The notes beneath the pieces are model-generated. The model saw only the letters and a program-made list of their open reading frames with translations. It was not told the origin of the DNA and did not search any database. A stretch of DNA of 26,059 bases, taken from the UHGV virus genome UHGV-0143644; one strand, given 5' to 3'. The position numbers were made by a program, and so were the translations under genes. Numbering within the stretch: the first letter of the stretch is position 1; each line of letters begins with the position of its first letter. This document shows, piece after piece, positions 21,074 through 21,549 of this stretch. The DNA comes from a virus.

Positions 21074-21083
21074 GGCTAAACAA

Positions 21084-21112
21084 TTGTTCGCTATTTTATC
21101 GTGAGCTATTTA
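21084..21112 (+). promoter_or_regulatory. Candidate late promoter PR'
   Basis: -35 TTGTTC (21084-21089), 17-nt spacer, -10 TATTTA (21107-21112), just downstream of Q. Confidence 0.3.
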
Positions 21113-21169
21113 CTTTTCCCGAATCTGTGTTAATTTTGTTCTAACGATGGGTTAATGCCTTCGTTTAAA

Positions 21170-21198
21170 GCCCTGCGGTTAACCCCGTGGGGCTTTTT
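21170..21198 (+). terminator. Intrinsic terminator (tR'-like), first of two between Q and the holin
   Basis: 9-bp stem GCCCTGCGG / CCGTGGGGC (two G-U pairs), loop TTAACC, followed by TTTTT. Confidence 0.65.
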
Positions 21199-21420
21199 CG
21201 TTTCTGCACAACAGGTAAGCCAAATCGTAACAATTACACCCGCATCCAGGTTAAGCGGGGCTAATAAACCTGGCGATTTGGCTTTCCGTTGTGGTGAATG
21301 TACTGATGACGTCGTAAATCGATAGCCGTGAATGCCGGATAGCAGCACCGGTCACCACAAACCAGACCCACTACCTGGGACCCTTCGGCCAGAGAGCCGA
21401 CATTGCCTTACCCTCATCTT

Positions 21421-21444
21421 CCTGGCTTGTCGCCAGGTTTTTTA
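21421..21444 (+). terminator. Intrinsic terminator, second between Q and the holin
   Basis: CCTGGC-TTGTC-GCCAGG hairpin followed by TTTTTTATT. Confidence 0.75.
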
Positions 21445-21549
21445 TTCCAGGCTCCGGGAACCATCCTCGACATGCCTTGTTGTTAAATCGTCCCGAGGGC
21501 CTGACCTCAACTACGCACAGCACCCCGGAATCATCGGAGGTGAGAGACT

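Follow-up and report, generated by a model that had tools for sequence, protein, structure and literature searches.

What lies between the gene of a phage antiterminator and the lysis genes when no known gene is found there? This question is raised by the viral genome UHGV-0143644 (26,059 nucleotides (nt), one strand, 5′ to 3′; this whole stretch is called the window here), in which positions 21074–21549 separate the gene of a Q-family antiterminator from that of a holin. The spacer is an ordinary lambda-type late-operon leader of a lambda-like prophage, and the architecture of such leaders is already known; the long hairpin it contains at 21207–21293 adds a member with its own new interior to a family of which little has been described and only one member, the LPR2 RNA of phage lambda, noticed in 2024, has been studied. 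We think it probable that this Q-antiterminated late leader carries, in the hairpin, an RNase III processing site from which an RNA of about 74 nt would be released. The features concerned are:

21207–21293, + strand: hairpin with the conserved stem of the lambda LPR2-locus family (covariance model R2, 61.6 bits, E 5.6e-15)
21228–21273, + strand: phage-specific interior, 46 nt between the stem arms, class 37 of 37
21214–21287, + strand: predicted RNase III product, 74 nt, 5′-GG...CC-3′, proposed from the LPR2 size match and the RNase III rule

The outer stem of the hairpin, CACAAC/GTTGTG (21207–12/21288–93), is followed by a bulged A (A21213), the two pairs GG/CC (21214–15/21286–87), a T·T mismatch (21216/21285) and the inner stem AAGCCAAATCG/CGATTTGGCTT (21217–27/21274–84); the match to model R2 spans 21203–21297 and is the single copy in the window. 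A preliminary description of the spacer had recorded nested inverted repeats at this place. The repeats are real, and the longest of them (GCCAAATCG, 21219–21227, with CGATTTGGC, 21274–21282) is a segment of the longer stem 21207–21293, but the two inner helices, CCCGC/GCGGG (21239–43/21255–59; 5 base pairs (bp)) and CCAGGTT/AACCTGG (21246–52/21267–73; 7 bp), cross and are not nested. With connecting loops of 2, 2 and 7 nt their geometry is compatible with an H-type pseudoknot, and they may represent either such a pseudoknot or alternative pairings; both are unchanged in the L124-type variant of the interior (loci are cited by L numbers where they have to be told apart). Folding and covariation among relatives, two of the checks proposed in the same description, both speak for a structured element: the 104-nt hairpin segment folds with −40.3 kcal/mol (z = −4.57; 0 of 200 shuffles are equally stable), and the stem is about 98% paired among relatives, with many compensatory changes.

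These relatives were collected by scanning viral contigs with the pattern CACAACAGG-N(44–74)-CCGTTGTG, which gave at least 129 matches; in 117 of the 129 listed the stem is extended by the next 12 positions. Among the matches listed from unrelated bacterial genomes, 5 of 120 extend the stem, and three of these five are genuine (one in a Serratia prophage, two in assemblies with lambda DNA); the bacterial genome scan (596 Gb) was swamped by chance matches and served as a negative control only. The family stem thus delineated consists of 6 bp, a bulged A, GG/CC, mostly a U·U mismatch, and then 10–11 bp. Among the matches listed there are 77 distinct arm pairs, in which 98.1% of the cells pair and double changes occur at 8 of the 10 pairs left free by the pattern, values reached by 0 of 500 shuffles; GG/CC is invariant in this set (A1), in which the outer eight pairs are fixed by the search pattern. 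A first covariance model (R1), consisting of the arms and an artificial 4-nt loop, missed even the true hairpin and was replaced by R2, which was built with real interiors and collected 104 distinct copies; in these 98.0% of positions are paired and ten pairs co-vary, GG/CC included. The window copy has the complete stem (CACAAC/GTTGTG, bulged A, GG/CC, 1 × 1 mismatch, about 10 bp) and a position typical of the family, on the sense strand of an operon with internal terminators and behind a terminator, whose place a tRNA may take in other copies, its inner stem CCAAATCG/CGATTTGG being the most divergent compensated variant in the set. Since a U·G wobble is found at stem position 18 in 55 of 74 copies, since G·U is far commoner than A·C in family stems and since the covariance model scores the sense strand 20–40 bits above the antisense strand, the + strand, which is that of the late transcript, is marked as the functional one, which argues for an RNA. 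The common 3′ arm holds UGCUCUUU, the first eight bases of the rrn boxA; as the window copy lacks it and has GGCUUU, boxA is not a family requirement. No curated Rfam family lies on the hairpins of lambda, CobraSix or P1-like phages, the records of lambda, P1 and E. coli RefSeq that were examined carry no annotation of this widespread family, and the searchable literature contains no description of its breadth, of its exchangeable interiors or of its association with tRNA clusters.

The connection to a known RNA is made through lambda, where a hairpin of 76 nt (44787–44862) lies directly after tR′ and has a stem base identical to that of the window (CTGCACAACAGGTAAG ... CTTTCCGTTGTG). LPR2 was described as an Hfq-bound RNA of about 63 nt “in close proximity” to 6S RNA, mostly lytic and very faint in lysogens, which forms chimeras only with PreS and fliC (bioRxiv 10.1101/2024.10.31.621285). 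The published northern probe for LPR2 is the reverse complement of lambda 44816–44850, inside the lambda hairpin, and the GG...CC segment of this hairpin is exactly 63 nt long, which is the reported size of LPR2. When RNase III cuts both strands, 3′ overhangs of 2 nt result, and the two positions that separate the cuts are paired, usually with a G–C pair among them (PMC6212723); GG/CC between the bulged A and the U·U mismatch fits this published rule. Excision by RNase III is proposed because of this fit and because the lambda GG...CC segment has the size of LPR2. The exact lambda late leader, including tR′ and the LPR2 hairpin, was also encountered in a contig of Pseudomonas sp. 30_B (L193) and in one of a metagenome-assembled genome assigned to Chromatiales (L208); contamination of the assemblies by lambda DNA is the most likely reason.

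While the stem is conserved, the interior is not: the 74 distinct hairpins fall into at least 37 unrelated interior classes of 25–52 nt, and the interior of the window is unrelated to the other 36 classes in a comparison that used, by fixed offsets, a 48-nt span for the window copy. How sharply the interior is delimited can be seen in lambda (L001, 988–1063) and L028: their flanks of 250 nt to either side share about 99% identity, and only the interior has been exchanged, 37 nt in lambda against 29 nt in L028, as a cassette swapped cleanly within a conserved stem. The window interior recurs identically in L125, a viral contig 98% identical to the window, and at about 90% identity, within quite different flanks, in L124, L126, L127 and L128, where a C-to-U change in the outer stem keeps the pairing only as U·G. 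Outside the hairpins the interiors have no occurrence in about 1 Mb of loci, and no two of them are reverse complements. The T-loop motif of tRNAs, GTTCGANTC, is present in 12 interior variants (33 of 117 instances; L003, L006, L007, L016, L032, L040, L053, L057, L061, L074, L081 and L092), which belong to several unrelated classes; neither ARAGORN, run on 54 loci, nor Rfam, run on 20, calls any hairpin a tRNA, the T-loop variants included. The lambda interior is predicted to form a duplex of −45.8 kcal/mol with PreS, an Hfq-dependent small RNA (sRNA) which activates dnaN, as compared to −31.2 ± 4.1 kcal/mol for shuffles, and lambda-class interiors hold the five best PreS duplex scores among the 74 interiors tested. 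The window encodes a homologue of PreS (LPR1) at about 7978–8066 (− strand), in which a 26-nt stretch that includes the seed (8027–8052) is identical to that of lambda and at the end of which a terminator, GCCCTC...GAGGGC, precedes a T-rich sequence. Because its interior is a class of its own, the window hairpin belongs to the family but is not an orthologue of LPR2, neither in sequence nor in predicted pairing with PreS.

The genomic settings of the family are those of phage operons. With a panel of reference proteins, Q and NinG were found upstream and holin, lysozyme and Rz downstream, on the strand of the hairpin, in 23–25 loci each, with one exception. At many loci the hairpins lie 1–3 nt from the ends of tRNA genes and form arrays of 3–5 copies, and tRNA-adjacent hairpins occur both in P1 and in lambdoid phages. 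The preliminary description had set the spacer apart from that of Shiga toxin (Stx) phages, in which this site holds toxin genes and tRNAs; this implied contrast does not hold, as other hairpins of the family adjoin tRNA genes at the same site. The Q–S region of Stx2 phage 933W contains no family copy. In the ban operon of P1 four copies lie between a dicF-like region and tciA; they are on the + strand around trnA and trnT (L249, NC_005856, 2561–3588), and three of them overlap the reverse-strand open reading frames plp and upl (2973–3542), which may be mis-called. At P1-like loci partial matches to the Rfam family STnc100 are seen 3′ of hairpin arrays (L065, 2804–2923; L046, 1983–2102), which with 41.9 and 33 bits stay below the gathering score of 47. 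In a second setting, the early-left operon, a PL-like promoter stands after a gene for a cI-type repressor, and a terminator, reached after a short leader, precedes the hairpin. Prophage Qin of E. coli K-12 (L251) has two divergent copies, 19170–19261 (+) and 11163–11228 (−), with 31.4 and 29.8 bits; one has ydfC and dicF as its neighbors, the other cspB and the holin gene essQ. RNase III has been reported to generate the 3′ end of DicF (72 nt) just after dicF (PMC5069750). A perfect 14-nt complement (L251, 19444–19457/19580–19593) brackets this region and provides another RNase III stem right after a terminator-ended sRNA.

How the hairpin would come to be transcribed and processed depends on the elements around it, which are:

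20258–21073, + strand: Q antiterminator gene, 271 amino acids, lambda-Q family with an enlarged zinc-finger region (PF03589, E 7.7e-47)
21109–21136, + strand: late promoter PR′, −35 TTTACT (21109–21114), 16-nt spacer, extended −10 TGtTAATTT (21128–21136)
21143–21156, + strand: initial transcribed block AACGATGGGTTAAT, identical to that of lambda PR′; putative downstream part of qut
21167–21203, + strand: terminator 1, equivalent of tR′, 12-bp stem with 7 GC pairs, then a T-run (terminator scan)
21294–21420, + strand: non-coding leader 3′ of the hairpin, with conserved motifs GTGAATG... and ...AGCACCGGTCACCACAA...
21421–21443, + strand: terminator 2, CCTGGC/GCCAGG (21421–21426/21432–21437), loop TTGTC, T6 (terminator scan)
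21444–21549, + strand: holin leader with the Shine-Dalgarno sequence GGAGG (21536–21540), read directly from the sequence
21550–21891, + strand: holin gene, 113 amino acids, Met-Lys-Met dual start (PF05106, E 3.3e-30)
downstream of the holin gene: lysozyme and Rz genes (PF00959 and PF03245)

RNA polymerase would start at PR′ (about 21143) and meet a lambda-type pause and Q-loading sequence. Without Q it would stop at terminator 1 and leave an RNA of about 55–60 nt, the counterpart of lambda 6S; with Q it would read through terminator 1 and transcribe the hairpin. The hairpin starts 4–8 nt past the U-tract of terminator 1 and spans about +65 to +150; as it lies 3′ of this terminator, only polymerase that has passed the terminator would transcribe it. 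RNase III would then cut both strands flanking GG/CC, between A21213 and G21214 and between C21287 and G21288, which would detach the late mRNA from its 5′ leader and free the upper stem-loop as a counterpart of LPR2. Next to tRNA genes such a cut would liberate the ends of the tRNAs, and the location of copies within 1–3 nt of such ends is what a processing signal would predict.

All elements named in the preliminary description are present where it had placed them. Its candidate PR′ is borne out by homology: the −35 and −10 elements align with those of lambda PR′ (TTGACT and TAAATT), and AACGATGGGTTAAT does not vary among the four sequences aligned, those of the window, HK225, L125 and lambda (NC_001416). 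A scan for consensus promoters flagged no + strand promoter in the spacer, so the assignment of PR′ rests on this homology to lambda. In lambda the late transcript begins with the corresponding block, which contains the sigma70-dependent pause where Q loads, and qut comprises the promoter and the first 20–25 transcribed bases or so. By analogy AACGATGGGTTAAT would be the region of pausing and Q engagement in the window as well, and the qut/pause function would reside at about 21109–21160. Terminator 1, the stem of which (GCCCTGCGG/CCGTGGGGC, 21170–21178/21185–21193) extends over 21167–21196 and is followed by T5 (21194–21198), folds with −19.9 kcal/mol. It is found in HK225, mEp237 and PHB10 with 90–96% identity, the HK225 record annotating it as rho-independent. 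It is an intrinsic terminator shortly 3′ of the start site and is predicted to end a PR′ RNA of about 55–60 nt starting near 21143; judged by homology, it is well placed to give the short PR′-initiated RNA that had been suggested. Matches to the Rfam family isrJ, a Hfq-binding sRNA of Salmonella, lie directly after Q-like antiterminator genes of CobraSix-type phages (L003, 792–865; L057, 791–864; L107, 2558–2634), which suggests that isrJ is a terminated leader RNA initiated at PR′.

The two terminators said to flank the hairpin were both found by the terminator scan, and they are the only + strand terminator-like sites within 20000–22500; on both strands there are nine such sites, compared to 2.6 ± 1.4 in shuffles. 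Terminator 2 is backed, in addition, by compensatory changes: in 20 relatives a hairpin with a T-run stands at a fixed distance before TTCCAGGCYCCGGGAAYCATC, with stems that vary in sequence and always pair, and L125 has the paired change T21423C + A21435G. Lambda has a terminator-like hairpin in the equivalent place. The distance from the end of terminator 2 (21443) to the holin start codon (21550) is given as 113 nt. Since the record of Stx2 phage 933W annotates three terminators in the same leader, multiple terminators are ordinary in a late leader. Terminator 2 may be a back-up stop for polymerase that was not modified by Q and thus keep the lethal lysis genes silent in the lysogen, the double terminator being a conserved safety feature before these genes. 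An antiterminator switch in which interior positions 21262–76 would pair with the descending arm of terminator 2 (21430–44; 15 nt, 93% complementary) was considered and rejected, as CobraSix has the same terminator with another interior and L128 the same interior with another terminator.

The remainder of the spacer is equally that of a late leader. From 21282 onwards it is 85–94% identical in CobraSix-type phages; its motifs (GTGAATG... and AGCACCGGTCACCACAA) also occur 3′ of hairpins at other loci, and the block beginning TTCCAGGCYCCGGGAAYCATC in the holin leader is found in 17–23 loci. The order PR′, terminator 1, long hairpin, conserved leader, terminator 2 and holin gene, all on one strand between a Q-family gene and a lysis cassette, matches that of lambda (PR′, terminator, hairpin, leader, second terminator-like hairpin, S). 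Q of the window shares 33% identity with lambda Q (E 2e-46), from which it differs by insertions in its zinc-finger region, and corresponds in length and context to the “late gene regulator Q” of HK225. HK225 shares Q, PR′ and terminator 1 with the window and has no hairpin; its sequence (L002, 1296 onward) diverges exactly at ...CGTTTCTG, the start of the hairpin, and continues with the reverse-strand gene HK225_067 and then a second terminator. Because the divergence begins exactly there, the edge of the hairpin is a module junction. The holin gene begins with ATGAAAATG (21550–21558), which reads Met-Lys-Met; this dual start, arranged as in lambda S107/S105, suggests a holin/antiholin pair. 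Elsewhere in the window the Rfam element Lambda_thermo, the cIII thermoregulator, matches at 7473–7531 (− strand; 88.5 bits, E 1.2e-20), and the early-left operon is therefore lambda-like. The statement that the spacer carries no cargo is right as far as genes are concerned: neither ARAGORN nor the Rfam tRNA model calls a tRNA in the spacer, a scan of the whole window at the Rfam gathering thresholds places no family in the spacer (between 20950 and 21650, at E ≤ 10, there are only chance-level look-alikes, namely terminator-containing sRNAs), and five small open reading frames in the spacer, one of which is equivalent to a CobraSix “hypothetical protein”, have no PHROG family match. It has to be restricted on account of the 46-nt interior, which is itself a variable, exchangeable RNA insert.

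Several points weigh against release of an RNA by RNase III. Cleavage of the window hairpin, the product size and an effect on other RNAs are predictions drawn from the sequence, and in lambda, too, the RNase III sites, which probably lie within 44787–44862, are assigned by position and by the size match with LPR2. In favor of the proposal, Daniels et al. (1988; Virology 167:568) reportedly described RNase III processing sites in the Q-dependent late RNA of lambda. RNase III usually contacts about 11 bp on each side of a cut, and the lower stem, with 6 bp, is short for this enzyme. Conservation of the outer eight pairs in set A1 is a matter of ascertainment; this is partly relieved by the set collected with R2, the alignment of which was fitted to the model and hence leans towards structure. 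As to function, the interiors are only weakly more structured than shuffles (mean z −0.41), the best duplex of the window interior with anything in the 26-kb window (−42.9) falls within the range of shuffled controls (−35.8 to −45.9), and a role of this interior as a sponge for the window PreS was discarded, the duplex energy being no better than that of shuffles.

An alternative of some weight, though we regard it as doubtful, is that the hairpins are cis-acting signals of processing or stability like the intercistronic RNase III sites of T7, which would trim leaders or tRNAs and leave protective stems, the interior being unconstrained filler that drifts and is reshuffled through recombination between the conserved arms, and the excised piece being without function. 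Interiors that are weakly structured and unrelated from class to class would be expected of filler, the window interior finds no target within the window, arrays of 3–5 copies next to tRNA genes would suit a generic processing signal, and the lambda/L028 swap can be explained by recombination in the arms. Against this stands the lambda piece, a discrete RNA that accumulates, binds Hfq and is found in chimeras with PreS and fliC (bioRxiv 10.1101/2024.10.31.621285) and the interior of which is unusually complementary to PreS; furthermore, a given interior stays about 90–100% identical while its flanks are replaced, and the T-loop motif recurs among several unrelated interior classes. This motif, together with the presence of family members inside tRNA arrays and hairpin lengths of 66–91 nt, might instead point to a tRNA-like gene, decayed or unconventional, left over from the tRNA clusters which occupy the site in other phages. 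Such an origin is very improbable: none of the hairpins in the loci scanned, that of the window included, is called by ARAGORN or by the Rfam tRNA model, a T-loop is absent from the window interior, any tRNA feature is lacking in most of the 37 interior classes, and neither a CCA end nor an anticodon arm is present.

The preliminary description had, for its part, considered the hairpin a possible qut or pause element aiding the engagement of Q, and a strongly structured element near PR′ may well give this impression. Comparison with lambda, which it had proposed, leaves this idea with next to no probability: the promoter and initial block match those of lambda, and it is these sequences, at 21109–21160 and upstream of terminator 1, that correspond to lambda qut, while the hairpin lies outside qut and 3′ of a terminator beyond which unmodified polymerase does not normally proceed. 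Moreover, members of the family are found far from any Q gene, at PL-like promoters by cI-type repressors and in the ban operon of P1, and HK225 manages with the same Q, PR′ and terminator and no hairpin. The abrupt divergence of HK225 at the 5′ edge of the hairpin, with a reverse-strand gene there, the precise exchange of an interior within the arms between phages about 99% identical, and the hairpins flanking tRNA cassettes bring to mind a site of recombination at the DNA level (an attC-like hairpin, ends of a miniature inverted-repeat transposable element or a linker at module junctions) for the exchange of tRNAs, toxin genes and morons; the outer boxes, ...ACAAC and GTTGT..., we take to be loosely like the R″/R′ boxes of integron attC sites. 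This, too, is improbable. GCACAAC and GTTGTGG each deviate from the attC consensus (RYYYAAC/GTTRRRY) at one position, no integron-type integrase or transposase lies beside copies at the loci examined, the flanking genes there being phage Q, lysis, repressor, RdgC or tRNA genes, and the frequent U·G wobbles, the rarity of A·C and the 20–40 bits by which the sense strand is favored indicate an RNA made from one strand, in line with the discrete lambda RNA detected in vivo (bioRxiv 10.1101/2024.10.31.621285). A role as a junction would, at any rate, be compatible with a function as RNA and no replacement for it.

The preferred reading, a processing hairpin for RNase III in a Q-antiterminated leader, can be taken one step further, to a proposal which we consider speculative and, as matters stand, unlikely: the family would be a modular sRNA cassette of temperate enterobacterial phages (lambdoid phages and P1), in which a fixed RNase III scaffold carries an exchangeable, phage-specific regulatory interior of 25–52 nt and which is made only after antitermination. 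If this were true, the processing stem would be functionally like that of a pri-miRNA, and the interior would be a sponge for PreS in lambda, a tRNA-like T-loop decoy in others and directed at a target of host or phage in the phage of the window; phages would trade interiors through recombination within the arms, of which the exchange between lambda and L028 would be an instance. The covariance model R2, the rules for the stem, the predicted pair of cleavage sites, the catalogue of at least 37 interiors and the natural swap make it testable whether a common processing scaffold delivers different small RNAs during lytic growth, how clusters of phage tRNAs are excised from late transcripts, and why tRNAs, toxin genes and other cargo are found at this site so often as to make it a hotspot.

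Among known systems the closest is the late leader of lambda itself. The hairpins of lambda and the window share their position after the PR′ terminator and before the lysis genes and have in common the bulged A, GG/CC and the U·U mismatch; the inner stem is kept by compensatory changes (CCAAATCG/CGATTTGG in the window, GAGCATTG/CAGTGCTC in lambda). The interiors, 37 nt in lambda and 46 nt in the window, are unrelated, and while that of lambda is complementary to PreS, that of the window is not, despite a window PreS with an identical seed. With lambda 6S/tR′ and with StxS, the short PR′ RNA of an Stx phage (PMC7547250), the window would have in common that a PR′ transcript is made constitutively and ends at an intrinsic terminator shortly after Q. 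Its initial transcribed sequence is identical to that of 6S, but there is no similarity beyond the first 25 nt or so, and the predicted RNA of about 55–60 nt differs in length from 6S (194 nt) and StxS (74 nt). It also has no Rfam family, whereas phages of CobraSix type have an RNA of the isrJ family at the same position.

Like the intercistronic sites of T7 and the site at dicF, the family provides repeated similar hairpins between the units of a long phage transcript. T7 sites are typically cut once, in an internal loop, and have no long exchangeable interior. In the dicBF operon of Qin an RNase III site forms the 72-nt DicF (PMC5069750). That site, too, follows a terminator-ended small RNA, and divergent copies of the family are present in the dicBF and late operons of Qin, but the 3′ site of DicF is formed by a different, long-range pairing, unlike the family hairpin. 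Integron attC sites likewise consist of inverted repeats that are imperfect, conserved at the ends and marked by extrahelical bases, around a central part highly variable in length and sequence; they act, however, as folded single-stranded DNA together with an integron integrase, whereas strand asymmetry, operon context and the RNA of lambda point to RNA as the form in which the family acts.

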